Origin: Catajapyx aquilonaris
Taxonomy: Eukaryota
Assembly (NCBI GenBank): GCA_000934665.2
Contig: KZ538960.1
Location: 1-38,883, forward strand
DNA length: 38,883 nucleotides
Direction of reading: 5' to 3'
The position numbers and the translations under genes were made by a program. The notes beneath the pieces were generated by a model. The model did no database searches and was not told the origin of the DNA. It saw only the letters and a list, made by a program, of their open reading frames with translations. Of the stretch, positions 1 through 29,100 are shown piece after piece (the first letter of the stretch is position 1; every line of letters starts with the position of its first letter).

Positions 1-175
1 CGAGGTCCCGCGACGTGGCGGCTATCCTGAGGCGAGCTCGCCAGCTTCTGGCGACCTAGCGGCAAGCTCGCGGCTAGGTTAAATTTCGGTAAGGGAAGTT
101 TTCTTCTCTAAAAAGCGACTTCAGCTTTTCCGCGATAATCCCGATAGAAAAACCCTTTCGTCTTTTTAATACTTA

Positions 176-300
176 GGGCCGGTTTCACCGAGCTTGGTAT
201 ATGATAAAACCAGGTTTCTTTAGGAAAATCCATACAAATAGATAGGGATTTTGAGAAACACCCTGGTTTTATCATATACTGAGCTCGGTGAAACCGGCCC
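176..300. mobile_element. PIF/Harbinger-type (Tourist-like) MITE, 125 bp
   Basis: ~39-bp terminal inverted repeats (GGGCCGGTTTCACCGAGCT..., 2 mismatches) flanked by TTA at 173-175 and 301-303. Confidence 0.85.
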
Positions 301-677: not shown

Positions 678-1032
678 TTGCATAAATGTCGAATAGCGTT
701 TATCCTTCGTATCATCATCGTCGTCATCGTCATTATTGCCAGTAACAGTCAAGCGCACGTACTGTATACTATAGTGGGTAGAATTTTCGTCCCACTGCAA
801 GTTACTGCTAACTTAGCAGTGTTGGCTTTGGTACGGCTAACTTAGGAGTTTTTTTTTGTGTGTGTCTAGTAGTGGGACGAAAATTCGACACATTATTTTT
901 TGTATGACGCGCTTTTACCGATAGTATCGAAAGATATAATCGGTATCGTCTAAGATAATGATCGATTGGCAGTGTATCGCAATCGTCCCCTTTAAAAATG
1001 GCGCCATCTTTTCGGTGACCGGATTTTTTTAA

Positions 1033-3348
1033 ATGGAACGTCGTCCAGACATGTCCGGTCTGTCCGAGCTGTCCAACTCGCTGCAGGAGCTGAAGCTGAA
1101 GGAGGATCCGTCGGATCCACGTCGACTGGCGGACCTCATGAGGTGGGGGATGGGCCTGGTGGAAGAAGCCTTGCAGAAGGGAGGGTTAGTGAACTCATCA
1201 TATGGAATGTTCTAAACGAGTTCGAAATGAATTCTAAATAGGGAGAAGAATTAATTCTCATTGTTTTATGGCAGCCTGGATGTGGACACGGCGGTGGAGC
1301 ATCGGAGGAGAGTCCTGGATGAGTATGGGCAGGTCATGGATTCCAGGATTGGAGTCGACAACTACTGGGAAGGGGCTAAGACTCTGGCTGCGCAGGCCAA
1401 AAACGGTACAGATTTTCAGAAGGGTTTCAGAATTTATCTCATATTGTTAAGTAAATTTTGTGAACATTCACTCCCACTCACACCTATACAGTTCGGTGCT
1501 TTCGTGACGGTAGGGAAAACGCACGATGGCTTACATAAAGCTTTCATTGACAGTGAGATGTAATTTATTTTGCAGAGAGCCAGACGTGGACATCAAAGTT
1601 GACATCAATCAAGACAAGTTCCGACCCACAACGGTCAGAAAATTCCACCATCTTGCACGATCTTTTTAGTGACGAGCCGGACTTTAGTGATGTTACATAC
1701 CGTCCAGATCCAGCGCCGCAAGCGCCGCCACCGCCACCACCTAGGGCAATAATTAGGCCACCTGTAGCTGTGCAAAAAATGGCTCCATTTGGTAGTTACG
1801 CCAAATCTCGTTCCCAGGCCAGCTACCAGCCACCAGCATCGTTCAGATCTCAGCATCCAGTACACCCAGAACCAGAAGTTGAGAAACCAATTCATTTCCA
1901 ATCTGCAAGCAGTGTGCTGAAAGTATACATTTTTGCTGTACTATATGATTGTACTGAATTCCAGAGTTTACCTGATGATTCCGTTATTTAGGCACAGATG
2001 CAGCGCAAGAGACAGAATGGTGGTGCTGGGTCTTCAGGTGCATCCTCATACAATTTATCCCCTCCCTCCAAGAAATCCTTGGGTACCACTGGACGTGGTC
2101 CCTCCTCCAAGTTTGTACCGCCTTGGAAATCCAACCAGGAGCAGCAGCCTCAGTCGTCGCAGCCCTGTGCTGCATCTGGCTCAGAATCCAGCGGTGATGG
2201 CTTTTTGAGCAGTATCGACCCCAAGTTGGTGGAGATGATTACTAACGAGATAATGGATCGAGGTCCGCCTGTCACCTGGGACGATATCGCTGGGCTTGAG
2301 TTTGCCAAAACAACCGTCATTGAGATTGTGGTATTGCCCATGGTCAGGCCTGACCTTTTCAATGGCCTCAGGCAGCCTCCGAAGGGCTTGCTTCTGTTTG
2401 GGCCACCTGGAACTGGAAAGACACTAATCGGTGAATCTTCTTTTTGCACTCTAATAATTAGATTGTGATTTTTACAGGAATTTTTATTGCGTTTTGTATT
2501 TGTCAATTAACTTGGTTCATGAGATTCAGACACATTACACTTCCTTGCAGGTAAGTGTATTGCATCTCAGTCCCAGGCAACATTCTTCAGCATCAGCGCA
2601 TCATCCCTGACCTCGAAGTGGGTTGGCGAAGGAGAGAAGCTGGTGCGTGCCTTGTTTGCTGTGGCACGAGATCGACAACCGTCAGTTATCTTCATAGACG
2701 AGATTGACTCGCTTTTGACCCAAAGGAGTGACACAGACCATGAGGGCTCACGAAGGATGAAGACAGAGTTCCTGGTCCAGCTGGACGGAGCCACTACTGA
2801 TGCTGCTGATAGAGTACTGGTTGTTGGAGCAACCAACCGTCCGCAGGAATTGGATGAAGCAGCTAGGCGCAGGTTGGTCGAATAAGACCTGTACGCTACA
2901 TATGATTTACTTCATTGACATTTGTTGCTTAATCAGGTTGGTCAAGAGATTGTACGTCCCCCTGCCTGAAGCCAATGCCAGGCAGCAGATAGTTACGAGG
3001 TTGTTATCCAGAGAGAAGCACAATTTAACCGAGGATGACCTGCAAAAAATATGCAGTGCAACTCATGGCTTCTCCGGAGCAGACATGACCAATTTGTGCA
3101 AAGATGCAGCTCTGGGGCCCATCAGGGACCTCCAACTAGGACAGATTCAGCACATATCAGCCAACGAGGTAAGCTGTAGTTTGACAATGCTTTGCCATCT
3201 TTGACGTCTCTCTTCACAGGTACGTCCAATTTCGTACACTGACTTTGAAGCTGCTTTGCGCCACAACAAGCCAAGTGTCTCTGAAAATGAGATTGACGCC
3301 TACATCGACTGGAACAAAAAGTTTGGTTGCTGCAGTAATTCATCTTAG
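1033..3348 (+). CDS. FIGNL1: Fidgetin-like protein 1 (AAA+ ATPase), ~583 aa, 7 coding exons
   Basis: Exons 1033-1184, 1275-1405, 1576-1922, 1992-2430, 2551-2872, 2937-3168, 3220-3348, all GT-AG and phase-compatible. Walker A GPPGTGKT, Walker [27 protein letters not shown]-terminal WNKKFG. FIGNL1-like features: N-terminal VDNY...TLA...W, FxxA (FQSA), [34 protein letters not shown]. Confidence 0.92.
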
Positions 3349-3897
3349 GAGTGTTTGTGGCTCTTTTTTTATTATTTCTTTATGCAAAAACATTGCAAAA
3401 ATTATATAGTTTTGTGGACCGAAAGTTGCCTTTCAATTCCGAGAAAATAGATGGGGGGCTATTAAAGTTCTTTTTTCTAGGTGACATCTGTTTAACTAGA
3501 CTACAACTTTACAGAGGGGTGGGGGGGAAAACATGCTTTTGATAAAATAAAGGGTGGTCGAAAAACATTGTCAAGGATTGCACACAAGTTCCGCAAATTC
3601 TTGACTAGAGAGTTTAAGAAGCATGATTGTGTTCACTATTCAAATAAAGTTGTGGTGAAACTACTGATAGAAAAGAGTAAAGCTACTCTAAGAAGGACTC
3701 ATCTTTAAAAAAAAACAAAATCTAAATAACATTTGTGAATTATTTGTGCCCCCTTGAGCAAAAAAAAACTAATCCTATTTGGTTTGAATTCATGCCGTGA
3801 AAATGGTATGAAAAAAAAAGTACAGTATGCACTCAGGAGCCATTGAACCTGCCGAGTGTCAAAGCCTTTTCCTGCTGCAGTTCTGATCTCTGCATAA

Positions 3898-4079
3898 AGG
3901 CCCATTCACACAGACCGTCGACGGTTTTGGTCTTTGGTCGCGCTGACGCCGTGGACCAATCATGACTCGTGTAAACAAGCGCAACACTTGTATTGCGCTT
4001 GTTTACATGAGTCATGATTGGTCCATGGCATCAACGCGACCAAAGACCAAAGCCGTCGACGGCCTGTGTGAATGGGCTT
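3898..4079. mobile_element. Palindromic PIF/Harbinger-type MITE, copy 1 (182 bp)
   Basis: Whole element is a near-perfect inverted repeat starting AGGCCCATTCACACAG; TAA at 3895-3897 and 4080-4082; related copy at 13461-13636. Confidence 0.9.
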
Positions 4080-4811
4080 TAACGTTAAAAGCATTGGTTC
4101 TTGGTAATGGTAATTCTTATCGTGATTCCATGGACAGGTTCTAGCGATTGTTGTCTTTTTTGCAGCTAAATTTTTTGGAACATGCAGTGTGTGAACTTGA
4201 GTATTCTAAGGCTCTCTAAATGTATTAAAGCAATCCTTTATCTGCATGAGGCAGGAGGGGGAAAACAGTGGCCAAAACAGACACTTTGTACTCTGTACCA
4301 TGTCATTATAAAAACCCTCACATATATATATCAATTTTTTCGTGAATCTTTAAAATAAACATGGTTTCAAACATTTAAAACCAACACTGAGATATAAGAA
4401 TGGCACTAAAAGAACGCTACAAACATTTTTTTAAGGAAATTCATAGGATCCCAAAAACTTATCACTCTCGTAACACTGGAGTGTCCATAGCACTTGGGTT
4501 GGTTTCATACTTTGAACTTGTTGGTGGTCCATTTTCACATGATTATGTGCATTTTGTAGGAGGGGTTCTTTAAACTTTTCCCGTTAAGAGAGAGCAACAT
4601 TTTTTTAAAAACCGGGTGCGATAAAAACAATTCTGTTCCACATCGAACCACCATTGCACCACATCTCATAACAGTTCTGGTGTCAAACCACCTCAGCTGT
4701 AACGAAGCTGATATCTTTACCGATCTTTCAAAAATAGCCTGTTTAAACGTCGAACTTTAAAAATTCCTCTCAAGCAAAAATGGTGCCCCCTACGCTTTAA
4801 AAAAAATCCAA

Positions 4812-5575
4812 TCACATGAGGCTGCACCACCTCCCCCATCCCCTCCCACCACCTCCGCCATCAGCATCTACTTCAACCGCTTCCACCTCCTCTCCCCTGC
4901 CACTTGCGGGATAGTGCTCCTCCCTCTCTACCCTGCTTGCACCTCCAGCCCTGTCCACCTCGTCATCCTCCAGTCTTCTGACGGAGACTGCCACTTTGTT
5001 GAGGCTCACCACCTTGGCTTCGTTTACCACCATGGCATTTCCTAACCTGCTGCTTCTCCTTGCGCTTCCCTCCCGCTTCTCTTGCTCGAACTTCGCCTTT
5101 GATGCTGGCGTTGGGGTGCTGGTGCGGGGCTGTGTTGAAGTCCTAGGGCGGCCTCTTGGGCGCGGTGGCGGGTCAGGCGTCTTTCGCTTCTTGGGTGGCG
5201 GAGGTGAGGGCCTAGTGCGCCCCCGACTCCGGCTGCGGCTCCTGGAACGCTTCTGGGGCGGCGGCGGCGGCTTCTTTGGCGCCGACTTGCGCTTCTTTGG
5301 TGGCTCCGACGAGGCGGATGAGGACTCGGAGTCGCTCTGATCGTACTTGACATTCTTACGGGCCTGCTGCCTCATGTTGCTAACCAGGAGCTTGGTTGCT
5401 GTCGTCTTGTGCGGCGGCGAGCTGCTACCTACAAAACATTTTGTGTGAATATTCCATATTCGACTCCTTCTCCTTTCGTACGATGCTTACCTGACTTGTT
5501 GGACTTGGCCGTGGATCTTGTGGGTGTCCTGGTCCGCATGCTGCGTCCGGTGGGTGTCTTCTTAGGGGACGGCAT
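4812..5575 (-). CDS. Uncharacterised basic, low-complexity protein with AT-hook, NLS-like motifs and C-terminal CaaX (CSLM), ~233 aa
   Basis: Coding exons 5575-5491 (ATG CCG TCC CCT AAG AAG..., donor CAG|GTAAGC, phase 1) and 5428-4812 (acceptor TTTGTAG) join in frame with the listed 187-aa ORF. Protein MPSPKKTPTGRS...PPKKRK...RSRSRSRSR...PPKKRK...PRPRGRPR...RRSSRL...GRWCSLM*. Further acceptor TTGTTTACAG at 5628 precedes the ATG. Confidence 0.75.
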
Positions 5576-5844
5576 CCTTGCTTAGTCCCCACTCGAACTT
5601 GTTCCAACTGCTCAATTCGAACACTTCCTGTAAACAAGTACGTTTGAAACCATAGCAATAGAACACACTAAAAGAAAAAAAGAATATAAAAAAAACTGCG
5701 CGCGTCCTTCCCCCCCCCTCCCACTTCCTCCTTCCCTACATTTTTTCCCCCCCTTAACAACATTAGAACACTGTCCAAAAACCTACTGTTTGGATTCACG
5801 GGTGCGAACCCACTTGCCTAGTTGAGTGGATTGTGCAACGTTTG

Positions 5845-6130
5845 TTTTTCAAACTTCGCGACACTCCCCTGCCATTTTTGGGGGCTTTAGTTCGTTTACC
5901 TTTGGGCGGGAGCCAATCACACGGCGGGATCAGGAGACGCCATGTTTGTTCCGGGGAGGGGGGGAAGGAGGGGAGGGGGATAGGGGAGGGCGGGAAATTA
6001 TTTGGAACGTATCAATCCGCGCGTAACGGCTTTTTTTTCCGTGGTAACGTTTGAAGCAGGAGGCGGCCATATTGGAGCTCATGACCAATCAGTGTTGAGG
6101 ATTAAGATCACGTGACCATGCACGTGACCA
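5845..6130 (-). promoter_or_regulatory. Putative cell-cycle-type promoter of the CaaX gene
   Basis: On the minus strand: CHR-like TTTGAA (5853-5848) next to CGCGAA, E2F consensus TTTCCCGC (5997-5990). Also CCAAT boxes (5913, 6071 reverse, 6085) and two CACGTG E-boxes (6109, 6121). Motif matches only. Confidence 0.45.
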
Positions 6131-7349
6131 AACAGCTTTTAATAAAATAGCCAGAAACCGATCTGAAAATTATTAGTTAGAATCAGGTTTGTTGCATATT
6201 AATTTGTGTAAAATCTGCGGTTAGTCAGAAACGATAATATTGGCACAATTAGGGCTGTAAGGGCTGTACCGGGCTGTACTGTAATCAATGCATAATTTTT
6301 AAATTGGGACTTTGGGAGCCAATGAGCGCTGAACATGTGGAGTACTAACATGGCGGATTGTGCGTAGTTGTTATGTATCGTATCTAATTATTAGTGTCAT
6401 AATATTATGCGGAAATTGAAGCAAAAATTCCGATTTGCGCAATCATGTGGCGTCATTTCACGACGTCGATGAATTTTTGTAACATTTGGACCTAACATGG
6501 CGGCATGCAACTACAACATGTGGCCGCATGCTGTGGCCATACTTCTTCCAGAAACATTATTTTTAATACATGCATGTGGACATGCTCGTTTTGTTGTCGT
6601 GTACTGGCACTAAAGTTTTGAGTTACTGAGTGCGGGGCTGTTAGAACACTGCAAAATGAGGATGAAGATTGCGCCCCTTTTTGCGCTCTCAATCAAGTTC
6701 GCGCTATTTATTTTTTTTGGACCCGGGAAGGTAATTGAACAGGGTTGCCACATTGGCCATTTTGTTCGCATGCTCAAACGTTGTCATGTGCTTGTACAAA
6801 TTATTTTCATCTCAAAGAACGCCGTGATACTTGCCGTGATCACATCATGCGCACTGAATCTGCACGGTTAACTGTAAGTAGGTCAATAGGACGTCAATAG
6901 GTCAATCTGGCAACGTGGGTTAAACCCTGATGATGCGAGGGAAGCCTGTGATTGGTTGTTTTCAGAGGTCAAGGCGAATGCCGCGTTTTAAATCGGACCA
7001 ATCAGGATAGCTCAATTTTAAAATGTAATCAAGCTTTTTCTGATTGCAACGTACAGAAACGGTGAACTTATCAAGCACATAGTTGTTGTGTGTACTGTAA
7101 GTAATCCCTGGTATACAGTACATTGTCCAACATTTTTGCATTTGAAGCCGATTTGAAGTAATTTCGCTGGAGATGTGTGTGGCGCCACCTGAAACATGGC
7201 ATTCAAACTTAATATTTTTCAAATTCAACAAGTCCCAATTAGTGTTCATAGTACGCATGCGCTGGATACTGCAAGTCTTCCTACTATTTTTACAATGCGC
7301 ATGCGCCTTGTTCACTATAGTGACCACACGGTGAATGTTCAACTAATAA

Positions 7350-7392
7350 CCGTTTCCCGCCCGCCCAGATATCAACGTTTCGAATTTCAATT
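7350..7392 (+). promoter_or_regulatory. Putative promoter of the Ki-67-like gene (E2F + CHR-like)
   Basis: TTTCCCGCCC at 7353-7362 and TTCGAA at 7379-7384, followed by a CpG-rich stretch with candidate donors (7490, 7785) and an acceptor at 9770 ahead of the ATG at 9826. Confidence 0.4.
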
Positions 7393-8399
7393 ACATTTTT
7401 ATAGCACGTTATTGATAAAAAATGATATTACAGCCCTGGAAATAAACGGCCAGTTTCCTCCGTTGCTTGGAGGCGCCGGGGTGTAGCTGGTATCGTTTTT
7501 TAACGGCCGTATTTTGTTTTCCCCCCCCTCCCCGCCTTCCCCCTCTACCCCCCCCCCCTCCCAGTTGGCCAGTTCCGATTGTTGTTGCCGGATTCGCCGC
7601 CATTACCGAGCTGTGTTTGTCCCCCGCTAGAGGAGCGGGATCGGGTCGCCTTTTCGGATTACGAGAGGGTCTGTCGCCTCATCCTGTCTGTTCCCCTGCA
7701 TCTGGAGCTGGAGAGAGAGAAACCCAGGGCTCAAGCTGGGAGCCAGTAACAAGGGCGGGAAGGGAGAGGGGGGGGAAAAAAAGGGTGAGCATTGTTGCCA
7801 TGTTCCATAGGTTGGATTTCCTGGATAAGGCTGGGAAAAGTGGGCAGTTTGTACTAGTACTTGTGCTTAGAACATTAAGTGATTAGTTAGGGCAGACCAC
7901 TAGCGTAGGTAGCCAGTCGCATACACAATGTTGGAGCTGACTTTGGAACATTCCACTGAATTTGGTGACATGGGCACAGTTTGGCTCCAAATATGCATAT
8001 AATTTATTCCTGATCATGTTATTTCCTCGAAGAATGTTGGACATTAATCGCATCGTACTGCTAGCGACATTTTCCGAAGTGGCAGAAGAACAAATCGAAG
8101 CAATGGATAGGGCAAGCTGTGCTGCTTCGGAAAATGTCGGTAGCAGTATGACGCGATTAGTGTCCAACACTGTACACTGAATGCTGGTGATCGCAGAAGT
8201 AATCAAATCATGATTTGTATCAAAAGTGAAGCCCCAAATTAGCTACATTTCCCATGATAACCAAAAGTGCCCATGTCCCCAAAGAGCGAATCGCTGTCGC
8301 AGGGTTAATGAGTGTGGAGCCAGCATACTTAAGTATGGCTGTTTAATAGCATAGTTTCCATTAAAATTGAAAAAAATTGGCAATTATTACTGTTTAGAG

Positions 8400-9513
8400 C
8401 AGCGTTTCTCAACTGGGGTTGCTCGAGATATAGTGATGAATGGGCTAATCATGACACATGTAAGCGCCAGTCGCACCGAGAGTGGTATAAACCTGGCATT
8501 CTTTTGGAAAAGCCATACAAATTTGTATAGTTATTCCGAAAGAACGGCGGGTGTATCATATACCGCGCTCGGTGCTACCGGCCCTCTATGTACTTCTGGG
8601 TCGTTAATTGATAGGTCTATAATACAGTTGAATCCAGATATAACAGCCTCGGCTGTAACAGACTCTTCATTGTAACAGACTCAAAAGGCCAGTCCCGCCA
8701 TATTTCCATAAGGCCATGTGTATTTTACTCCTGATGTGACAGATCATTTTTTGGCCCCTCTGCGGTAAAATATGCTGTTTTTGATTACTCAGTTCCTTTC
8801 CCATGCGAGGGAAGCAGTGCATACTGGAGCGGGGATCATTTTCTTACCTGTCACTGTTCTAACACTTGCTGAAAATGTCAAAATCTTTCTTTTTCTGGTA
8901 TATTTGGCAAAGACAAGATGGCAGAAGGGAATGACGAATTTTTTTGGGGTGTTGCCTAAGTTATGGATGAGCTAATTTGGCATGTTTGTGGGTAGTTCTA
9001 GTTACATTAATCAGTATGCAGTATTGTGCATTATAAGCATATGAAAGCTGAAAACTTTGGGTGTTCATTGCAAGAGTGGCAATTTGGCTATAACCGACCT
9101 CAGTTATAACAGCCCGATTTCCTCAGTCCCTTGAAGTATGTTATATCCAGATTCAACTGTATAAATTTATGTCGGGGGTTCCCTGAGACCACCCCCCTGT
9201 TACTCCTACGAGGCTGGGGCTCAAATCCCGTCCCTGTCACCTCTGCTTGGCCGGGTCTGCTTTTTACCCGACATGCCCGGGTGGAATTGCACTCCCTACT
9301 CTGCCCAGGGCCAGGAGAAAAGGCCTGGTATTGAAAGAATGGGGGGNNNNNNNNNNNNNNNNGGGAGCGCCAGCACCAAATTCCCGCATGGTGGAGACTT
9401 ATATTAAACTCCCGTCAACACAGGGCTAGGCTGGAAGAATCAGGGGGCTGCCTGAAATTCTGCCCGAATATTATTTCAGGGTTCCGCAAGGGTAAAATGG
9501 TTGAGAAACGCTG
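8400..9513. mobile_element. Non-autonomous hAT (Charlie-like) element
   Basis: TIR CAGCGTTTCTCAAC / GTTGAGAAACGCTG and a perfect 8-bp TSD GTTTAGAG at 8392-8399 and 9514-9521; contains an N gap at 9347-9362. Confidence 0.88.
8625..9159. mobile_element. pogo/Tigger-type MITE nested in the hAT element, 535 bp
   Basis: 21-bp TIRs CAGTTGAATC(CA/TG)GATATAACA; TA at 8623-8624 and 9160-9161. Confidence 0.85.
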
Positions 9514-9663
9514 GTTTAGAGTGTTCCTAGGCAATTGTTCAATATATTGCCCCTTTTATAGGCGTAAGAGCAGCTTACAGAACAAGACTAAAGCGCAAGC
9601 ATTATGTAGAGGCAAGGTGTCATGAACAGTATGCCGTTTTTTTGCCCAGTGTGCATGCTGTAA

Positions 9664-9714
9664 AGGCCATTTCACAAAAAAAATGTCGCGCGACATTTTT
9701 TTGTGAAATGGCCT
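9664..9714. mobile_element. Minimal 51-bp palindromic Harbinger-type MITE
   Basis: AGGCCATTTCAC-A8-TGTCGC / GCGACA-T7-GTGAAATGGCCT, with TAA at 9661-9663 and 9715-9717. Confidence 0.75.
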
Positions 9715-9825
9715 TAATGCTTCAGAATTGTTCATCATGATTTTTGTTGAAGTAAATATTTTTGTTTCAGACTTGTCAGTCATCAAAAGATGAGCCCCAT
9801 CTAGACGTAAGCGGCAAAAGCAGTC

Positions 9826-12800
9826 ATGGAGTCATACGGCTACGTGGCAGTGATCCGTAAGAATGGAGCAGAAGGGTCCAAATTAGAGCTAGAGGGTGGG
9901 CGGATTACCTTTGGCCGCTCAGCAGATAATTCCGTCCGCATCCAATTCAATACTGTGGCTGACCAGCACTGCTACATTGAAGCAGATTCCAAGACTGGAC
10001 GTATCCATTTGGTCAACCTGGTCCGAGAAAATCCTGCCCTGCTGAATGGGACAGGGTTAACCCCAAATAAAAAGGCAACCCTGAAGACAGGTGATGTCAT
10101 CAATGTTGTTGGGCGGGATTTCCGCTGGGTCAGAAATGCCAGCAGGAAGTCACCACCATCAAGCCCGAAGAAGTTTCCTTCTATTTCACCCACGAAGTTG
10201 GCATCGACATCTCCTAAGAAGGCCCTTGCCTCACCCAAGAGGACATTGTCTCCAAATAAGTCACCAAAGTCACTTAAGAAAACTGTGGCTCCGAAGAAGA
10301 AGTCTTTAATTCCAATGCCAGTTTCATTGCTGAAGAAGTTAGGGACACCGAAGACACCTGCAGTGCCTAAGAAGTTGACCTCTCCAAAGCCTTCTGTGTC
10401 ATCTAAGAGGGTAGCATCTCCAAAGGCATCTGCATCGCCGAAGAAAGCAACCTCTCCAAAAGCATCTGCATCGCCTAAGAAGTCGGCTTCTCCGAAGACA
10501 TCTGCATCACCTAAGAAGTTTGCCTCGCCAAAGAAATTGGCATCACCTAAGAAGTCAGCTTCTCCGAAAACATCCGCAACACCTAAGAAGTTTGCCTCGC
10601 CAAAGAAATCAGCATCACCTAAGAAGTCAGTATCTCCAAAGGCATCTGCATCGCCTAAGAAGTCATCCTCTTCGAAGAAATCACCATCGCCTAAGAAGTC
10701 AGCATCCACAAAGACACCTGCATCACTGAAGAAGGCAGTGTCTCCAAAGAAGTCGGCTTCACCCAAGAAGAGGAAGAGATCTGTAAGCTTGGAGGGCACG
10801 TCCCCAAAGGTGAAACGGATTAAAAGGACTGGAGTGTCATTTGGACCTCAATTGAGTCCAGAGGTATATGATAGAAAGCTCCCACCAATAACTCCAGTGA
10901 GAAGAGGGGGCAGGCCTCCCTCCCGGAGAGTGCCCACCCCTAACTACTTTGGGAACCCCATCATTTATGAGAGAGGTTTCAAGCGGAAGTCGGAACCATT
11001 CCAGGTGGGTTTCTTTTTCTGGGAATGTAGCAGTAAAGATTATGTTGGGCTGGTCCAACTAAAATCTATCCTGCAACAGATCCTTTGTCTCATGTAGAAC
11101 TGCTAAATTTATTGATTTTCTCATTTTTAAAAGTCACAACTACTGGTGGCTGGCACTTCAACCAAGCAAAGGTCAGCCAAGTCCATCGGTGCATTTGCAA
11201 GTCCATTCGTAAGAGGGAAGATGAGAAGGCTCACTGCCGCTACCCCAATGCCACCTGAGTTGGAGGTGAGTCATTATACATACTTGATCATGGCCATTTG
11301 TAATGATAATTTTTTTCTCTTTAGGACTTTGGAACGCCATCAGGTTCTGTCCCCATGGTCGTGGATTCACCTCTGGTATCCCCAACCAAGAACTCCCCAC
11401 AGAAGACTACCTCGAGGAAGTCACCAAAGAGTGCTTCTCCAAAAGCAGCAACACCTAAGAAGTCTCCAAAGGTGGCTTCTCCAAAAGCAGCAACGCCTAA
11501 GAGGTCTCCGAAGGTGACTTCTCCAAAAGCAGCAACGCCTAAGAAGTCTCCTAAGGTGGCTTCTCCAAAAGCAGCAACGCCTAAGAGGTCTCCTAAGGTG
11601 GCTTCTCCAAAAGCAGCAACGCCTAAGAGGTCTCCTAAGGTGGCTTCTCCAAAAGCAGCAACCCCTAAGAAGTCTCCAAAGGTGGCTTCTCCAAAAGCAG
11701 CAACCCCTAAGAAGTCTCCAAAGGTGGCTTCTCCAAAAGCAGCAACCCCTAAGAAGTCTCCAAAGGTGGCTTCTCCAAAAGCAGCAACGCCTAAGAGGTC
11801 TCCAAAGGTGGCTTCTCCAAAAGCAGCAACCCCTAAGAAGTCTCCAAAGGTGGCTTCTCCAAAAGCAGCAACGCCTAAGAGGTCTCCAAAGGTGGCTTTA
11901 TCCAAGATGTCTCCTACTGCCAAATCATCTCCTGTGAAATCAACACCTACTATCTCATCAAGTGTGGCACGTTCACCAAGCCTTTCACCTAAGGCAACCC
12001 CAAGAGGGAAGTCGCCCAAGAACTCACCCAGAAAGTCTAGATCACCTAAGAAGGTGATTCCAAAGGTTGCACTGAAATTTCCGTCTATGGAATCACCTGA
12101 GGATTTGCAGGGGTCAATTTTCCATGTGCCTGAATCACCGGTTTCTTCACCAACTATGACATCACCCACTAAATCTGCTAGTGAAAAATCTCCATCTAAG
12201 ACGCCCAGGAATGCCACCCCTGAAAAATCTGCATCGTCTGAGATTCCCAGACAGTCCAAGGCTGGAAAGTCTAGTCCAACAAAGACTACCAGGAAATCCA
12301 GTCCTGGGAAAATTGCGGCAGTCAATACTCCTCAGAAGCCCGCTTCCAGGAAGTCAGCGCCTGGAAAATTTTCTTCAGTTCAGGTACTAAAGAAAAGCAC
12401 AACTTCACTGACTTCACCTAATAAACTTGCACCCGTAGCCTTGTATGTGAAGGAACCACTGATTCCTGCAGTGGAGGTGAGTGAAAAAGTGTGTAGGGAA
12501 TGTGAAAGGACGTGTTCCATGATCCGTTTTGTTGCTGTGAACCTTCCTTTCGGAGGAGATCGTACCTAACAATATCGGAATCTAAAGTTACACTCGGGAA
12601 ATAGAAATTTCCTTGCCTTCGGGGGGGGGGAAGAGAGAGAAGGAGAGAGCACATCACAGCCTGAAACATTGGAGTTCACGAATTTGAAACCCTGATTGTA
12701 ACAAGTGGTAATCCCAATAGTTAAAAAGAAAACGAGAGTTTCACTTTTCTGACTGTGTCATTGTTAGGTTCCATCTCCACTAAAAATTGTGGTGTACTGC

Positions 12801-15800
12801 AACGAAATTGATTCTGGAACACATCATTTATGCTTGATCAGAAAATATGTAAAATGAATCGTGATCTATGTGGTTGTTAGAAACTATTCTTTATTTACAA
12901 AACACCATGCATGATACTTCAAGATATTTGTCTTATCCATAAACACCGTTTAAACCTTGATACAAATCGATTTTTATTATTACAGCGAGTGTTAAAAAAA
13001 ACTATGTTGTCATGAGCTTCAAATCCTATTGATCAATTCAGTGTGTTTGTCTAATGAGCATAAATTTTGAGGCGCAGATGAAAGTGCTGCAAGTGTTCAA
13101 GAAGAACATTTATCTTGAGGGACTGAAAGAATTTGTGATGCAAGACCTGTGCATGAGCATGCAATGTTGATTTATGTTGCAACAAAATATTGGCCTTTTC
13201 TCCAACCATTTTTTTTATGTTTTTTTTTTTCTTCATTAAATTTGTAACATTCTGTGTCTCCAGGGGAAGGCAACGCCTAAGAAATCTCAAGCAAGCAAGC
13301 CAGCCACTCCCAAGGGAAGTCAGAAATTGTCCAGGGCTAGTCCAAAATCTGCAGCGTCTAAGGTGAGTCGTCGCATTAATTTTAACCATTTATGCCATGC
13401 ATACTCATGACAACCAGTTTGTCTTATGGCATGATGTGTTTCATTTTTTCGAAGGTGTAAAGGCCCATACACACAAGCCGTCGACGGTTTTGGTTTTTGG
13501 TCGCGTTGACGCCGCGGACCAATCATGACCCAAGTAAACAAGCTCTAAACAATGGGTTGCGCTTGTTTACATGGGTCATGATTGGTCCGCGGCGTCAACG
13601 CAACCAAAACCGTCGACGGCCTGTTTGTATGGGCCTTAATGTTGCTAACATATGTTGTACATACTGCATGACTTTGCCATAAACCATGTAAGTTAACAAG
13701 GCCAGACGTGAAATTTGCATTGGGATTGCTTAGACACATTTGCATTTTTTAATAAAAGACATTTGAATAAGCAGTTTCATTGGGAGACATACTGTATGAA
13801 CAGCAGACGTAACATTAACCTAGAAGTTCCTTTGTAGGTGAAGGTTAGTGTTAATGTGTTCAGTCTTTATTCTCCAGAAGTCCACACCTCAAAAACTCTC
13901 TGAATCTCCAAAGACCATGAAGGAAACCACACCAGGATCTAAGAGTTGGGAAAAGTCGACTGCCAAGTCCAAAACACCTGTGAGTAATTTTAACCTCTGT
14001 GAGATCTTTTGTTTTATGTAAATGAATTTACATTAATGCCCCTGTCGTTTATCAAAGTCGCAATTGTATCATTTACTGTTGTTTTGTTTGTTGGCCAACA
14101 GGTTACCCCAAAATCCAGTCAGGCGACACCTAAAAGTAAGGGCAAGGATGCTGTCCGCAAACGTTCCACATTGTTGACAGAGACCTCTGCTCTCCTCGAG
14201 GTGGATCCTGCATTGTCAGTCCTGAAATCTCCTCCTAAGTCCAAGAGAGTGACCATGAGCCTTCCCAGAGCTATCAAGAGGAGGAGGGCTACAGAAGTCA
14301 GCATGACTCCAGTGGCTGTTCCAGCCAAACGGACCAGATTGTTATCCACTCCAAAGGTGTCTGCCAAACCCAAGCAGACACCCAAGCAGACCCCAAAGTC
14401 AGCAGTTAAGCTTCTGTTTCCAGACAGGGCAACCCCACAGACACCAGCAGTAAGGAGGCCAGCTACGTTGCTTGAAATTAGTAGGAGGAAGACCCCAGCA
14501 GCCAAGAAGCCACTCTACTCATCTGTGGTCAAGGCTGGAAGGTTGTCCAAGAGGAAGTCCGTCCTGCTTAAGTCTGCCGTCAAGAAGAAGAAGCAGCCTA
14601 CCAAGGTGTCCAACAGAAAGTCCATCCACAATGTTAAGATCGTAAGTCCAAATCATTAGATTGCAATAGAGCCATTTTACACCCTGTTATAGGTAAACTG
14701 TTTGTGTGTCATAAAAATCGAAATAATTGAAGATTCCTAGCACCTGGAGCCATTATAAATTTTAAAAATTGTTGATTTGTGATGTTTAAACCAAACTTGA
14801 CACACCATAAAGAATATACAGTATAGTGGGAGGAAGAGAAGGAAAACTGAGTTTCACCTGATCACGTAATGTTAGTCGCTCCGGTTAAAATTGCATGTCG
14901 GGGAGACTCCTGAGATCCATGCAGTTGGCTTTGGTTTGACACAATATCTTCCTGTTTCTCTTAGGTTGTAGCCAAGAAGTTTGAAGCTGCCGCCAAAGGT
15001 CGTAAAAAGAAGCCCAAGCTGTACTACCTTTCATCTGCCGAGACCAGTCCAGTTTCACCATCCCCTCATGCCCCATCCACCTCCACTCCAGCGTCTTTGG
15101 CTCTTTCTCACTTGCCTTCAAATTCATCCACACAATCTGCCACACTTTCCTCTGCAGACTCCTCTGCAAATCCCTCACAGGTCATTCAGAATGTGACATC
15201 ATTTGATTTTGCGGGCTCTACCACTCCGCAGATCTCTTTAGAACGTTTTGTTTCACCCATTGCCACTGCGACACCACACCCTGAATATGTGAACATATCT
15301 GGGATACGTGGCCATTTTCGGGTCCCATCATCTACCCCACTGGACATCCATGACCTTGGGGTGGTCAAAGTCTCTCCGAAGAAGTCGGTCGACTTTGTTA
15401 GCTTCCGTAATGTCATGCGTCGCAAGATGGCCGCAAATCTTAATACAGAAGGTTACACTGGAGTTGGTTCTATGCTTAGAACACCCGAAGACAGCACACC
15501 AGTTGCTGTGGCCACTGCTGTTCCAGATGTTCCAGGCTACACGGGTGTGAAGCGATTATTCAGGAAGAGCCACGTCCCAGATTACTCGCAGGTCATGGGT
15601 GTGCGAAGAGTTCTAGCTGGAAATGCTGGTGGGGCCACACCAGATTACACCGATGTGGCTGGCATCAAGAAGATGATGCAGGCAGCAGCCGCTGGAAATG
15701 ATGGGAAGGTCAGCTTTGATGGGATTAAGGAGTTAATGGCCACACCAGAAGGTTGGGAGGAGACGAGAGGTGCTGCCAAGAGGAAGGGAGCGAGAGCAGG

Positions 15801-18800
15801 TTAGTGAAACACTCATGTTTAGTTGGTGTCGCACAAATGCTGTGTTAGTGTTGCATGAAGCAATTTAAAAGTTACGATTTGCTGGACTATTGAATTGCTT
15901 CTGGAATAACGAAAAATGTCTGCAATGGGATTTGTATGTTGGGAGAATGGAGCAGATGTTTTTTGATAGTATGGCAAAATATCCCTGATGTTTTCACATG
16001 TGATGTGACCAGTGAGAAGACTTATTTAACCTGCAAACAGACAACATTAATTTTCTCAACAAAAAAGCATCAAAAAAATCATTAAAATGTTATGTTCCAT
16101 GAGAGACTCATCAGTGATGCTCTTTTAATGTTTTGCGGTTTACAGTGTAGGGAAGGAGAAGGAAGGAGTCAAGTAGAGGTTGGGAGCAATTTGACACTGC
16201 AATGTCACAGTTGCATGAGGTTTTCTGCAAATCTACTGGTCATTTTAGTGATGTAAATAATTTTTCCAGCAAATTTTCTAATACTGATACTGGATATGAT
16301 TGTACAAGTAAGCAGTTTCAATGAGACAATATTATATTCCATTTCATAACTTTTGCTCCAGTCTGTGCATTATAATACTCCCGCAGGAGCAAAAGTCTTA
16401 AAATGGGCTGGAAAATTTTAAATATGATCCCTGATAATATACAGTATTGCTCATTTAGCGGAGAAAGGCGTCAAGAGGCAACAACATACCAAACATTGGA
16501 GTCAGATGCAGCTTTGTAATTTAGGCACATTGTCAAATGTTGCTGGTAGCATTTTAACTGGCATGCTGTGCCAGGCAGAATTGGTTTTTTGTGCAGGGAA
16601 GAAGCGTTTAAATGAAGCTTCATGGGCCTAACCTTGTAATGTGCACCATTGCCCCCATCAGTCGGTTTGAGTGATCAAATGCATGAGTTTGTTCCTCAGT
16701 TTGCTCCCATTGTAACCTATTGGACCATTTCCAGTCTGAATCCCTTGGGGATAGGTTGACATTCCTCAGTTCTCTCAACATCCCACTTTCACCCTTGGTC
16801 AAACACAAGCCTGCCTACTCTGTGATGCGCAACCAGTGACTTAATTTACATTTCGTGTGCTGCAGTTGAAGCCAAGCCAACTGGAAGGAGGAAGATGGCT
16901 TCTGCAACCTCCACCCCAGTGCTAGTTCCAGCTGAGTTGACTCGCCCACCATCAATGACAACCCTTCCCTCGCCCATTCCTGCAGTAACTAGGCACCAGC
17001 AGAAGACCCGTCCTTCCGTGGTTGCAAAGCCAGCTGGAGTTCACAAAAAAGGGAGGAAGAAGATTACAAAGGTGGTGCGAAGAAGCACCATGCAGGTATG
17101 ATGAATTGTTACAGTGGTTGAATAACCCCACATTTCACACGTTAGAACATGAATTATGTGCATTAAATTTAAACTGCATATTAATGCAATAACAGTCTGC
17201 CTTGGTGAAAGTTTTCACTACTGAACAGGTTAATGGGACTTCAAAATTACACTGAATTGTCACAAATAATTATTTCGTAATGGGCAAGTTTTCACTGACA
17301 GTGTGTATGTGATGTATTTTACTAGGTTGGCAATGGAGTGCTAATGGAAAAGATAAATTATGGGGGGTGTACCATATCAGTAGATGCTGTGTTTGGTTTT
17401 GTCACTTAATGCTTAACTGACGTTAATGTGGTAGCATAACGGTGGGTTATTATTGACTAATTGACCAAGGAATACACAAAATCTGCGTGTCACTAGGAAA
17501 GACTAGGGTGACACTGAAGGGTAACAAGAATTGAATGGGTTACTGGGAAAATTGGGCTTTCCAAGTTGCACTTTCGGAAGAACACTTTCGGGGTATATAC
17601 TAGTAATGATAAGGCCCCTTCCACTTGTTGAAATATTTTAGCAAGATTGTCATACACCCACGGACCCTCTCCACAACACCCCTGTCCAAATCTCATTGCT
17701 CTCAATCAGCGCCTGCTGCCATGATGCCAGAACAGTGTTCACTAAGCATCTGCAGTTGCCACTTCCAGTTTGTATTTCCTCCCTGAACATGATCCTATTT
17801 TATTCCTATCGGTCAGGAATAAGATATCTCCCACCTCCCACACCACGTATATTTTCTTCAACAGCTGCACTGCGGCCCTGAAACAGCGTTGGGTATACTA
17901 GCTAATAAGACCACTTCTGGTTAGAATATTCATTCCTAAAGTGGTCCTCTTTTACTCCAAATGGCCTGGAGTATCCTACTAGCAGAACAACTAGATTCTG
18001 TGTGTTTATTGGTCAGTTGTAGTTGATAATTACCAAGAAGGTGTTGGTCGTGAGGGTTGTGGTGGGATTTGGGTTCTGGTTTATGTTTGCAAACATTTGT
18101 GACTTTCTCGCAGGGACATACGGCTGTAGCCATTCTGATAGATTTTAGTGTCATCCTCTTGTGTAAAGATGCATATTTAAATTTCTGCTGCATATAATCC
18201 TGCAATGTGGGAAGGACAACTTCTTGAAATGCTGATAATTTTTTAAAAAAACTTGGTCATCATTCAAGTCATGCAAGCACTGCTCAGGAATTAAATTGCA
18301 GAAACAAAGCGTCTAATCTCAGAATGAACAGAAGCCCCATAAATAGCCCAGACAGCATTGCCAAGTCTGGGTTTCATGTTGATTATGAATTATATACTTT
18401 TATCATCTTCACAATTTATTGAAATGTTTTGGTGAAGATATTTATTCAGCTCTTTTTCTTACCATTTCATATAAGTGGATAGAAAACTGGTACTTTTTTA
18501 AATGTTCCAGCTGCAGCATTGCCATTACTTCAGGTGGGGAAGAGCAGTAACGTGACAACACAATTGTTGCACACTAATCGTTTTCTTATTGACAAGGACT
18601 CAGACTTGGCAGTGTTCTACAGGTTATTTGTAGTTATGTCATGAAGGTATTGGTAGTTTTTGTTAACTTATTAAAGGGTGACTTCACTATGCGTTTTATA
18701 ATGTATAGATCTATAGGCAACAAATCTGGTTATTCCTTGAATGATGTGCGACTAAATCTCTTGCCTTTCTGCAGGTGGAGGAAGTGGTGACTGTAGAAAG

Positions 18801-21485
18801 TGTGGCTGACTCAGAAGAAGAGAAGAGTTTGGAGAATACTCCTGTGAAGACCCGCCGCCAAAAGGGGACATTCATGATGATGCTTACAGAGGATATACAT
18901 GAGTCTCCTGTCAAGAAAGCAGGAGGGGCTAAGAAGGGGGTTGGTGCTGCTGCCAAGAAGGGATTGCCAAAGAGGGCTTCTAAACATAATGTCTCGGAGG
19001 CCAAGAAGCCAGCTACCCGAGCAAAGAGGGGTGGGAGTCGACAGGATACCCTCAAGCCTAAAGTTGCCTCTGATGGACTTGTTGTACCCAGTCCAAAACC
19101 AACCACAACTCGCAAAAAGTCCTCTGCAAGCAAGGCTACCAAGAAGAGGGTTGTTATGAGCAAGGTCAAGGGAGTACAAAAGGCCAAAAAAGCATCCCTG
19201 GCAAGAAAGTCAAAAGGAACTAAGAAAGCACCAGTGAAGGCCACCATCCCCTTGAGCAAAGATGATGGTAAAGACCAGCCATCTGAAGACGGCATCTCCA
19301 GCAGTGACAAGTCACCACCAGCCAAAGGAAGGGGTGCAAAAAGAGGGGCACCTCATAGATCCCTTAATACAAGCTCTGTCACAAAGCCACCTGCTGGCAG
19401 GTCTACCCGAGGAAAGAAACAGCAAGCTGATGGCTTGACTGCCCAACCTTCACCGGTGGCCACGAGGACTCGTCCAGGGAAGGCTTCAAAACCCACCACT
19501 AAGGCGGCTAAGACGGGTAAGGGCTCCAGCACAGTCAAGAAGCCAGCAAAAGGGAAAACCACCCGAGGAAAGGCTGCATCAGCAGATGAAAGTGCAGATC
19601 TCATGTCGCCACAACAAGGGAAGGAGTCACCAGCCGTGGCTCGGCCTGCAAAGAAGGCAGCACCTGTGAAGGGGAAGACTGCTTCTCCAGTTAAGAGGCC
19701 TAAGAGGGGCAAGGCAGCCTCTGCCAACAACACAAAGGTTTCACCAGTCACTAGCAGGGCTCCCAAAGAGATGGCACCACTCAAGGGCACCATTGCAAGT
19801 GCCATAAAGAAGCCTCGTAAGGGCAAGGCTGCCAGGTCACAAGCAGTGCCACTGGCCAGTTCTACCAGTTCAGCTGAGGAAGTGTCAGTGGCTACTGCAG
19901 GAAGGTCCCAGAAAACTAGAGCTGGGAAAACTGTTAGCAAAAAGCCAACTAGTGTTTCCAGTTCTGCAGAAGAGGCAGTAGTGAATCCTAAGAAGAGTAG
20001 AGCTGCGAAGGTTGCTAGCAGAAAGGCGGCTGGTGATTCCAATGTGGCAGTAGGGGGAGCCGGAAGTCCGAAGAAGACGAGAGCTGGGAGGTTTGCTGCC
20101 AAAAAGGCCGGTGGTGGTTCCAGTTCGGCAGAAGAGGGGTCAGTAGGTGCAGCAGCAAGTCCGAAGAAGACGAGAGCTGGGAGGTTTGCTGCCAAAAAGG
20201 CCGGTGGTGGTTCCAGTTCGGCAGAAGAGGGGTCAGTAGGTGCAGCAGCAAGTCCAAAGAAGACGAGAGCTGGGAGGTTTGCTGCCAAAAAGGCCGGTGG
20301 TGTATCCAGTTCGGCAGAAGAGGGGTCAGTAGGTGCAGCAGCGAGTCCGAAGAAGACGAGAGCTGGGAGGTTTGCTGCCAAAAAGGCTGGTGGTGTATCC
20401 AGTTCGGCAGAAGAGGGGTCAGTAGGTGCAGCAGCAAGTCCGAAGAAGACAAGAGCAAGGAAGGTTGATAATAAGAAGATAGCCACATTGAAGCCGAGCC
20501 GAGCCAAGGACTCTGAATTAGATGGCAAGGAAGCAAGCAATAGGGTGTCACCTCAGCAAGTTATGAAGCTAAAAGCAGTCCAGCGTCGGCTGTCTCGACC
20601 CAAGGTTACATTGACTGTCACGCTTGAGCCTGCATCAGATCTCAGCAGTTCAGGGGAGCAGTCAGTCACCTTTGATGTGCCACAACCCTCAACATCAAAG
20701 GCAGCAGTTAAAAAGTCTTCACGTAAGGCAGCCAATGGCACCACGACTTTGACAACTAAATCGAAGTCCACTGCAGCGAAGCCGAAACCTGCAGCCAAAT
20801 CCAAGCCTGCTTCTCGGTAAAGCTATTTTCTAATACTCTTCACTGACAAATGAGCACCTGGAATTCACTCTTAATTAGAATAATATAATTCCTGGCTCTA
20901 TTGTCGTATTCTAAATGGCCTTCAGAACCATAACTGATGTTGTTTTTTCGTAGGGATGTATCTCTCTCACCTGCCAAGACTCGACGTGGAACTCGGAGTC
21001 AAATGCCAGCCGCCCAGTCTCCTGATAGTGTGCCTAAGCGGAAGTATACGGTGACTGAATCTGACAGCACCCCTCCAAAACGGTATGTCCAACTTACAGG
21101 CTGATGTAGGGTGTCGGGAGAAAACACGTAGGGTAGCTGGGTAGCTGGAAAGTTTCTCCCAAGTGCTTTAAATGCCCAGAATTAGATTTTGTATTCATTT
21201 ATTTAGACGGTAATATGAAATTTGCGATTCTTTCTTGGACCTTAAAATTCATTTTATGGCCTGGAGCTCCAAACTTGGTGGATTGGTTTTCCCTTGCTCT
21301 TAATTGATTGGTTTTAACGATTAAAGTTGGCCCAAGCTCTATAAAAAGAGGTAGTGTGTAACTAGCTGTCTACATTGTTTTTCATTGCATATGCTGAATT
21401 TCACGACATTGACAACATTTTCTCTTCCAGTTCAAAGGTTCACACTCCAGCCCCACGGGCCCTTCGGTCTAGGGTGAACAAGTAA
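9826..21485 (+). CDS. MKI67-like: Proliferation marker Ki-67-like protein, ~2164 aa, 11 coding exons
   Basis: Exons 9826-11004, 11134-11265, 11325-12476, 13264-13362, 13878-13979, 14102-14641, 14965-15799, 16866-17095, 18775-20816, 20954-21082, 21431-21485, all GT-AG and phase-compatible. N-terminal FHA (VIRKNG...TFGRSAD...IQF...QHC...NP.LLNG...LKTGDVI...R.FR), PP1-binding-like VSFGPQLSPEVYDRKLPPITPVRRG, LYSSVVK block, GIKELMATP/GVKRLF-type motifs, basic disordered remainder ending RALRSRVNK. Confidence 0.8.
10380..10770 (+). repeat. Degenerate coding 18-bp repeat (SPKKSA / SPKASA units)
   Basis: About twenty 6-aa S/T-P-K-type units in the first coding exon. Confidence 0.85.
11421..11897 (+). 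repeat. Coding 42-bp tandem repeat, 11 units plus partial (SPKVASPKAATPK[K/R])
   Basis: Near-identical units at both DNA and protein level. Confidence 0.95.
13461..13636. mobile_element. Palindromic PIF/Harbinger-type MITE, copy 2 (176 bp), intronic
   Basis: Same family as 3898-4079 (AGGCCCATACACAC...CCGTCGACGG...CCAATCATGAC); TAA at 13458-13460 and 13637-13639. Confidence 0.9.
20065..20457 (+). repeat. Coding 93-bp tandem repeat, 4 units plus partial (SPKKTRAGRFAAKKAGG.SSSAEEGSVGAAA)
   Basis: Near-identical 31-aa units, with degenerate SSSAEE units just upstream. Confidence 0.95.
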
Positions 21486-26100: not shown

Positions 26101-29100
26101 TAGGAAACAAGGGCGCAGGTAAAAGAAGAGAACATGATTATCTCCAAACTTGCAGCTTTTATACTACCCTATCAACCAAGTCAAGCCTTATCTTACACCT
26201 TACCCTGGTTAAGAGATTCCATAACGGATCCTCATTCATCTGCAGGCTACAAGGCTGATTTATATGTATGGACAATATTGCCATGTTCTCTGCAACAATT
26301 ATATTTTCTGTTTCTCTATGTCCTTCCTATTGCCATGCACCATCATGCAGACACACACCAAGTACAAAAGAACTCCATAATAATTATAAGATTCTTGAAG
26401 CTACATGAACTCGCCTCATTGCATTGGTATGGTGGGATAGTCGTTGGAATTTTTGTGGTAGCCATTTTACACAAGTGGTGGGGAGAGGTGTATGCATTAG
26501 TGGTGTAATATATTTCATAGGGGGCCAGGAAGTATGCTAACTGCCTGTTGGGGAATTTTGGTGCCATGAAACATTTGGTATGTCCATCACCTTTCCAGGT
26601 ACACCATAAACCAGACATACTGGGTTTGTGAAAAGGCTTTAATTTTATGAGCTTTTTTTTTGTAGTTTCATGTAGCATTTATGTTTGATTCGGCTATGAG
26701 GGTCACAACATAATTTTGACCATAATATGTATACACTCAACTCATACGATCAGTGTGTAAAACATGGATCATAAGTTTTGTTAAGATAATGTGGATTTTT
26801 AAATTTTCCAAGGAGGGTCACTCCAGCAAATGTTAGATTGTAACAAACATTTAATTACCAATTATTTTATGCTTCCAGTCACTGCTGCTCCTAGCATATT
26901 TAGTGCGCAATGGGTCTGAACGTGTGGTGACGTCCTCCCGTGAGCACATATATGACCTTCGCAGCCTGGAAAACTACACATTCATGGATGAGTATGGAAA
27001 GGACCAAGGAGTCAATGTGCGCCACAAGGTGAAAGAGCTGATTGACTTTATTCAGGACGACGAAAAACTCAGGGAGGAGAGGAAGAAGGCCAAGAAGAAC
27101 AAGGACAAATATGTCGGGATGTCCAATGAATCCATGGGCTTTAGAAGCGGCTGTAAGTTACTTTCACTACTGTCCTATTATTGGGAATAGATGGTAAATC
27201 TTAAATACATTTGCTTACAGCAAGTGACCGTTGGGATGAAACACCCCGGTGGAAGGAAGAGGGATTCACGGACTGGGATCCAAACAAGAATGGTGGTGAC
27301 TCCAGTTTTGGGAGGAGTAAGAAGAGATTTGATGAGATGGGACACTCCAGGTGAGCACTCAACAATTGGTTAAAATGAGGGTGAGCTTAATGAAAAGTGA
27401 ACCACGATCTGTCCCATTTATAACTAAGAGAGCAAATAATATGCCACTTGTTGGTGTAATTATGTGTGAATTTAAGGCAACTCTTTGGTTTGTGGTTATT
27501 TTCGTTTATGTATAAAAGTCTCCAGAAGTGATCATTTAAAGAGGCATCAATACATTTTCATTTTGAAGAAGCCAAAGCAACTGTGGCCGTCTGCCTATAA
27601 TTCCTTATGACAATGAAGTAGCAGTAATAATAATAATCATAATCATAATCATAATCATAATCATAATAATAATGAATTAGCACATATATTACTGTAAGCT
27701 GGTATAGAACAGGGCTTCCCAGGAGTAGTTTGATGTTTTGTCTGGTCCCCAAAAGTGTTCCCTGTGCTTTACAAGGTAAAAACAACCCATGTCAATCGCT
27801 TGACAAGTTCTGCAAAATATTTGCAACATGTTTTGCCACTGCTGCAACAAATCTGTTCCAGCAGAGGATTTTACAAGATCAAATTCAAAATTGTCTCAAC
27901 ATTTTTTGTCTCACACTGCGTCAGTTTAGTGACAAAATCTCTTGAAAGCAATATTTCTTATCAAAACCGCATTTAACTTCCTCGAGGCCTGTTCCCGCAT
28001 TTATTTTGCAAATAGCAGTTGATGAACTAATAATGGATCCCCTATGTTTATTCAAGTTGTCACTCAAAGTCCTATGTCTTTTCAACTCTACAGTGTATTT
28101 TTTAAGATGCTCACCATTAGATAGAAATAATGCCACAAAAAATAAGGTGCCTCATAACTGCGACAGTGAGTTGTTTTGAAGGTTAAACCATGTGTTTTAA
28201 TCATAATTCTAGCTGTGATGATTTACATTGGCATCCTTGCAGTGACGAGGGTGAGAAGTTTGATTCAGACCACGAGAAAGGCAACAGTCCTGGAGGGCGA
28301 GAGTACCGTGACAGTGAGATTAAGGAAAAGCCGAAGCTCAAGTCTCCTGGTGCAAAGAAGGTTATTGACCTCGGTGCATCTGCAAATTATGGCCGTGACT
28401 CCTCGTCATCATCGCCTGCAAAAAGTCCTACGAAGAAGTCGCCTGACCTCTTCAGCAATCCAGTGGCACCAAGTGATGACGACTTTGATCCACGCGCTGG
28501 TGAAAATGGGGACTTTGGTAACTTCACTGCTGCCACACCTGACGCCAAAAGTGACGAGTTTGCTGACTTCACCAGCGCCTTCGATGCTTCTTCTGGTAAC
28601 CAGAGAGCAGCACCACAATCAGATGCAGATCTGCTTATGGGGTTGAATATGAACTCGGTTAGCAGCACTGGGCTTCCGGCTGGCATCCCTGGCCTTATGG
28701 GAGGAAATCTTCCTTCGTCTGGCATTCCCGGCCTCATGGGTGGAGTTGTGGCACCTAACCAGGGCATGCTGGGCAACCCTCCTGGCATCCCCAGCCTTAT
28801 TGGGGGTAACACTTCATCAAGCCTCATGGGTGGAATTTCATCCCCTCAGGGTGGTGGCAGCCTCACAGGTGGAGTTGCATCAACTAATCACATCCCGGAC
28901 CTATTAGAAGAAGGTGAGTGTTGCCACTTTACCTGCCCATAATCAGTGTGCCGTTTGTGTCAACATTTCTCTTGCAGCCTACAGTGCAACAATAAGTGAA
29001 ACTGCATCGAGACTTTTAGGAATGCTGAAAAATGATGACACTGCAGAACAGGCCATACGTGAAGTTTTGTTCTCATTCGTTCCGGGTCCTGAGACACCAC

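Follow-up and report, generated by a model that had tools for sequence, protein, structure and literature searches.

A small orphan gene of Catajapyx aquilonaris pairs chromatin-type motifs with a lamin-type CaaX end: a candidate lipid-anchored heterochromatin tether

Described tethers between heterochromatin and the nuclear envelope are few, and those named as widely expressed in the available part of PMC9839372 are LBR, PRR14 and CEC-4. A short reading frame of the arthropod Catajapyx aquilonaris (assembly GCA_000934665.2, contig KZ538960.1, positions 1 to 38,883, hereafter the window) raises the question of whether a small protein could do similar work. An earlier note, made from the DNA letters, had proposed that this frame encodes a minimal farnesylated protein linking AT-rich chromatin to the nuclear envelope. 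Here we ask whether the gene is real, whether its CaaX end belongs to the protein, and what the product might bind.

The gene is real. Its coding sequence runs on the minus strand from an ATG at 5575 through 5575-5491 and 5428-4812 to a stop codon at 4812 (702 nt, 233 aa) and terminates in WCSLM-stop, so that re-derivation of the frame returned the length and the CSLM end first reported; an in-frame TAA lies three codons 5′ of the ATG. A contig from one public run (X1, of unrecorded kind, whose contigs were placed on 2500-13000) maps to 5877-5786, 5626-5488 and 5425-5044 with 0 mismatches; the two stretches that it leaves out, 62 and 159 nt long, have GT..AG boundaries. Because X1 contigs skip such introns (three of them, across two genes), we read the run as cDNA. 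The 5491/5428 junction, which the earlier note had named as the first thing to check, is joined on both sides without a mismatch. Its two-exon structure holds for the coding part and misses a non-coding first exon, which the spliced contig adds to make three. Two unspliced X1 contigs, 4091-4504 and 4497-4809, lie directly behind the stop codon. The listed contig pieces leave a gap at 4810-5043, which includes the HP1 motif and CSLM and is counted neither way; for the CSLM end, the source is the genomic frame. Base composition separates the coding sequence (GC 0.62, GC3 0.69) from the introns and 3′ flank (0.37-0.42), and the gene is single-copy, its match in its own genome being itself only, by protein and by DNA. 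A near-perfect, MITE-like palindrome of about 180 nt (3899-4081) closes the 3′ flank. The features of the locus are collected in Table 1.

Table 1. Features of the candidate tether gene and its surroundings (window positions, or residues where so stated)
Feature	Position	Strand	Basis
Promoter-like zone: CCAAT 5911, 6083, 6317; E2F-type 5990; E-boxes 6109, 6121; TTTGAA 5848	5848..6325		motif scan
Exon 1, non-coding (5′ end = contig limit)	5787..5877	-	spliced contig, sequence
5′ UTR intron, 159 nt, GT..AG	5628..5786	-	contig joint
Exon 2: 5′ UTR, ATG 5575, codons 1-28, basic, S/T-rich, SPKK and TPTR CDK-type sites	5491..5627	-	contig, sequence
SPKK	residues 3-6	-	sequence
Intron 2, 62 nt, GTAAGC..TAG, phase 1	5429..5490	-	contig joint
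Exon 3, coding part, residues 29-233 and stop	4812..5428	-	open frame; contig over 5425-5044
NLS-like PPKKRK copy 1, residues 71-76	5286..5303	-	sequence
RS dipeptide run, residues 89-97	5223..5249	-	sequence
NLS-like PPKKRK copy 2, residues 106-111	5181..5198	-	sequence
Single AT-hook RPRGRPR, residues 118-124	5142..5162	-	sequence; core as in PMC11354804 (available part)
RRSSRL	residues 152-157	-	sequence
HP1-access-code (PxVxL-type) motif, residues 169-182, central Val176	4968..5009	-	regex of PMC12526061 (available part)
C-terminal Arg/Trp patch with both Trp, then CaaX CSLM (230-233), stop	4812..4844	-	sequence
3′ untranslated flank	4091..4811	-	two unspliced contigs, 4091-4504 and 4497-4809

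The predicted product is a basic protein of 25 kDa and pI 11.4, in which 80% of the residues are disorder-promoting. Its SPKK and RS motifs, high pI and R/K-rich composition would also suit a generic disordered chromatin protein, for example a basic protein of the germline or sperm, whose CaaX arose by chance or is spliced out. Such a splice, which would delete both the HP1-access-code (HAC) motif and the CaaX, has a usable donor at 5009 (GTGAGC) and a possible acceptor at 4795 (T-tract AAG) at its disposal, and the scan through which we came to the gene selects striking ends. We nevertheless consider this reading improbable. The 5009-to-4795 joint is absent among the listed X1 contig joints, one contig crosses 4795 unspliced up to 4809, and the last 77 codons have a coding-like GC of 0.59, compared with 0.37 in the 3′ flank. 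An end of the form C-x-[VILM]-[MSQA] was found in 21 of 200,000 shuffles of the protein, about 1 in 10,000, a chance figure that, like the one that follows, was taken on a gene from a scan favouring striking ends. In an own-genome control of 83,053 bases (from which loci picked by CaaX pattern, the lamin and self copies were excluded), 16 of 6,027 stop-ended frames had such an end, and C-x-[VILM]-M occurred in 1 of the 6,027, namely this gene.

The sole Cys of the protein sits at -4. According to the available part of PMC13524398, a CaaX box whose X is Met, Ser, Ala or Gln is a farnesyltransferase substrate, with Met directing farnesylation; CSLM-stop conforms to this rule, in agreement with the assignment originally made, and farnesylation of Cys230 is, judging from the motif, very likely. 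The genome also supplies a native example. One lamin locus was found (G000:C531:83340-79142, minus strand, L026), all Filament matches over the cut-off lying on C531, and it is complete, with a long Ala-rich head, rod, NLS and tail domain (PF00932 in its exons). Its last exon ends in CSLM, identical to the end of the candidate tether, and CSLM is thus an envelope-protein CaaX native to this host. The lamin-type CaaX of the candidate is probably functional. The last five codons of the two genes match at 13 of 15 nucleotides, a stretch too short to argue for a common origin. A split-off lamin tail was considered and ruled out, the lamin being separate and complete. Across the genome, the pattern W-C-x-x-M-stop occurs at 16 sites (L010-L025), as against 3 for the reversed control, and of the 16 only the site in this gene closes a frame of more than 49 aa. 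Other CaaX genes may have their short last exons at several of these sites.

K-Ras4B is targeted by a polybasic stretch together with its farnesyl group, and a protein as strongly basic as this one, with a farnesylation-type end, could similarly be cytoplasmic or reside at the plasma membrane. We regard this as very improbable, as the final 48 residues carry more acidic than basic residues (10 against 6), over 100 residues separate the basic tracts from the Cys, and the protein holds an AT-hook and two NLS-like motifs.

All of the motifs listed in the earlier note were found in the 233-aa frame (PRPRGRPR, two PPKKRK, the RS run, RRSSRL and the N-terminal SPKK/TP sites). We take PPKKRK to be a nuclear localisation signal; residues 52-62 presumably resemble the C-terminal chromatin tether of topoisomerase II, and RRSSRL, by our assumption, nucleosome-binding motifs. 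There are eight S/T-P sites, two of them with the full CDK consensus, and two Arg together with the only two Trp of the protein stand immediately before Cys230. In 200,000 shuffles of the protein, PRGRP was present in 968, PKKRK in 580, RxSxRL in 3,222 and bare RGRP in 7,849. The reading of RGRP as an AT-hook core agrees with the available part of PMC11354804, where the core is PRGRP with basic flanks, as here, and where short AT-hooks are described as binding DNA weakly; the candidate has a single one. No Pfam domain was matched in either coding exon, nor was the AT_hook profile; no hydrophobic segment was found (best 19-residue Kyte-Doolittle mean 1.08). A crude heptad scan returned no convincing coiled coil, the best window (170-198) being weak and the N-terminal half P/S/T-rich. 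These results bear out the view that the protein has no evident rod or globular domain.

Residues 169-182, which the first description had overlooked, match a published HP1-binding consensus, with Val176 at the center, Arg at +4, three basic residues within -4..+4 and acidic residues at +6 and +7. The regular expression for this HP1 access code, as printed in the available part of PMC12526061, covers 14 positions and requires 3-6 basic residues and a disordered region. It is degenerate, and we noticed the match post hoc: the expression alone is found in 7.4% of 50,000 shuffles, or 2.8% when the basic count is also imposed, and a single match turned up in the six further long frames of the window that were scanned. 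The segment is, by its sequence, a candidate HP1 ligand. In a complex prediction, a 38-residue piece was paired with the chromoshadow dimer of a stand-in HP1, which shares 58 of 67 positions with the HP1 of this genome. The pair scored 0.46, as against 0.02 for the best control, with contact agreement of at least 53% and partner pLDDT of at least 51, and was graded weak. In the benchmark, which had no peptides among its cases, 51 of 78 solved pairs passed the mark, as did 2 of 108 mismatched ones, and scores of 0.60 or below comprised just 5 of the 78 solved pairs but every one of the 4 mismatches that passed; in a eukaryotic benchmark, 39 of 65 solved pairs passed, as did 2 of 126 unrelated ones. 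As similar HP1-peptide complexes have already been solved, the pass may be a memory of those structures. Given this HP1-type motif, HP1 may be the chromatin partner no less than AT-rich DNA; of the originally proposed link to AT-rich chromatin, the AT-hook core stands, while the HP1-type motif has to be set beside it. The genome holds at least 5 HP1-type loci (G000:C2723, C3290, C8100, C2754 and C6908; L029-L033). Two near-identical HP1 copies differ at otherwise conserved chromoshadow positions, which suggests a recent expansion of HP1.

Protein searches for relatives used the exon-3 part (204 of the 233 aa). No homologue appeared among 8,000 scored candidates of 112-357 aa that share words with it, or among 1.84 billion representatives; with the Pfam result, this agrees with the earlier failure to place the protein in a named family. 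In the Atlas, exon 3 had no usable match and the last 82 aa reached 0.76 at best, which is chance level; 0 of 592 metagenome contig stretches and 0 of 47 viral contigs matched, and the PDB gave one chance match (E 0.7). TELO2 of the same host has a best identity of about 31%, with none above 32% among the matches listed. In a lineage whose TELO2 relatives stay at or below 32%, and for a low-complexity protein, blank searches prove neither youth nor uniqueness. We therefore describe the gene as an orphan with a coherent set of chromatin motifs, and its function is read from short motifs in one species. The TELO2 matches listed include ENTH-TELO2 joint forms from Daphnia, a beetle and dipterans; in the window, a clathrin-interactor-like frame (our own reading, with no Pfam match) stands directly before the single long TELO2 frame (28187-31472, plus strand).

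The model that we put forward, at close to even confidence for the whole of it, is that of a lipid-anchored, disordered heterochromatin tether. Farnesyltransferase would modify Cys230, the two PPKKRK signals would drive nuclear import, and the farnesyl group with the adjacent Arg/Trp patch would keep the C-terminal end embedded in the inner nuclear membrane. About 50 residues upstream of this anchor, the HAC motif would bind an HP1 chromoshadow dimer, and the AT-hook and RS/basic tract would contact DNA, RNA or histones. In mitosis, CDK, SR-kinase or Aurora would phosphorylate the basic half and so weaken chromatin binding. If true, a lamin-type lipid anchor, an HP1 motif and an AT-hook within 233 aa would represent a further, drug-switchable tether design. 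The open-licence literature that we surveyed, by titles and abstract starts, contained no CaaX-anchored HP1 or AT-hook tether.

Several points count against this model: the blank homologue searches, which give no motif a conserved counterpart, the degenerate and post hoc HAC match, the weak complex score, the lone AT-hook and the potential splice from 5009 to 4795. The main objection comes from experiments on Kugelkern. Without its coiled coil, Kugelkern forms nucleoplasmic puncta despite NLS and CaaX (PMC2947476, available part), and the candidate has no convincing coiled coil. The premise of the original proposal, that NLS plus CaaX sends a protein to the inner nuclear membrane, is hence insufficient for Kugelkern, although in the same source GFP-NLS-CaaX deforms nuclei weakly and a rod-less lamin tail likewise affects nuclear shape. 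The puncta would suit a farnesylated nuclear protein that acts on chromatin or mitotic chromosomes rather than residing in the membrane, its farnesyl group lying in a protein pocket, and that is maybe co-expressed with a Ki-67-like gene in proliferating cells. In Spindly and CENP-F, the farnesyl group fits a protein pocket in this way. Two properties of the locus fit such a protein. Its promoter-like zone carries CCAAT, E2F-type and E-box sites, as these motifs are commonly defined: 5780-6350 (570 nt) holds 3 of the 17 strong CCAAT, 1 of the 5 E2F-type and 2 of the 4 E-box sites of the window, a set that recalls proliferation-gene promoters, although as weak evidence. The divergent upstream neighbor, the Ki-67-like gene (9811-20820, plus strand), carries FHA and PP1_bind in its first long exon. 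On the other side stand the altered nuclear shapes; both Trp right before the Cys would suit a membrane interface, and the CaaX is the same as that of the lamin. We judge a non-membrane protein somewhat unlikely and retain the membrane tether as the working model.

The Ki-67-like gene has further long basic exons with SPK/TPK repeats, and one of its introns is confirmed by a contig. Non-vertebrate Ki-67 homologues, arthropod ones included, have been described (bioRxiv 10.64898/2026.06.18.733134, available part). Judged by the frames read, its product looks basic, whereas the fly protein is acidic. Another promoter-like zone (7254-7360), possibly that of the Ki-67-like gene, has sites of NRF1 and E2F type and lies about 1.4 kb from the candidate's. 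Downstream, an AAA-ATPase gene (Pfam AAA and AAA_lid_3; 1000-3400), fidgetin-like by our own reading, converges on the candidate and leaves no room for further exons. An N-terminal piece of an LBR gene was thus ruled out, there being no downstream room for membrane exons.

A bolder form of the tether model, in which a farnesyl-anchored, wholly disordered tether of HP1 and AT-rich DNA, of a new kind, replaces LBR in a lineage that lost it, is rather unlikely. Searching the host genome with PF01222 gave one match over the cut-off, which is DHCR7-like, and PF09465 (the LBR Tudor) gave none; since the same search missed the split tail domain of the lamin, loss of LBR is not established. The DHCR7-like sterol reductase (G000:C5689:3847-4590, minus strand, L028) is closest, among the matches listed, to a stick-insect protein.

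Among known systems, Kugelkern of Drosophila and mosquitoes is likewise an arthropod non-lamin protein with an NLS and a C-terminal CaaX, and as of 2010 it was the only non-lamin farnesylated nuclear protein known (PMC2947476, available part); its type of anchor is also described in the available parts of PMC10660854 and PMC12428385. Kugelkern has 570 aa and an N-terminal coiled coil required at the membrane, whereas the candidate has 233 aa and none evident, and the AT-hook, RS run and HP1-type motif of the candidate go unmentioned for Kugelkern in the available text of PMC2947476. Database searches with the candidate gave no homologue; beyond that, the comparison with Kugelkern (conserved block 353-404) is by description. 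One could suppose that the candidate is a Kugelkern orthologue diverged past recognition, which would shape nuclei by expanding the inner membrane instead of tethering chromatin; Kugelkern is, after all, the known NLS+CaaX nuclear protein of insects outside the lamins, and the host is an arthropod. The difference in length, the P/S/T-rich N-terminus without a coiled coil and the lack of a match to any database protein make this quite doubtful. If the tether model is true, Kugelkern-like NLS+CaaX proteins may recur across arthropods and, being disordered, would escape homology searches.

The B-type lamin of the host (G000:C531) shares the terminal CSLM and a basic NLS with the candidate, which has neither its rod nor its tail (Ig) domain by Pfam. 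HMGA proteins are similar in disorder, in the PRGRP core with basic flanks (PMC11354804, available part), in a nearby TP site and in an acidic C-terminal part, but have three hooks according to published abstracts, whereas the candidate has one RGRP and ends in CaaX. PRR14 (PMC9839372, available part) is proline-rich, has two NLS and LxVxL-type HP1 motifs, and bridges heterochromatin and the nuclear periphery; a protein domain attaches it to the lamina, while the CaaX of the candidate would bind the membrane directly, and the candidate has no Pfam or sequence similarity to it. The nucleoplasmic domain of LBR does possess the RS region named in the earlier note; behind it come an HP1 motif of variant PxVxL type (VEVKL) and then a membrane anchor (PMC13371100, available part). 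This is the order seen in the candidate, and motif order is all that the likeness consists of: the candidate lacks a Tudor domain (Pfam) and the transmembrane ERG4/ERG24 sterol-reductase domain, and its anchor would be a lipid. By analogy, we infer that the candidate may play a part like that of PRR14 or of the nucleoplasmic domain of LBR, from an anchor of the Kugelkern/lamin type.
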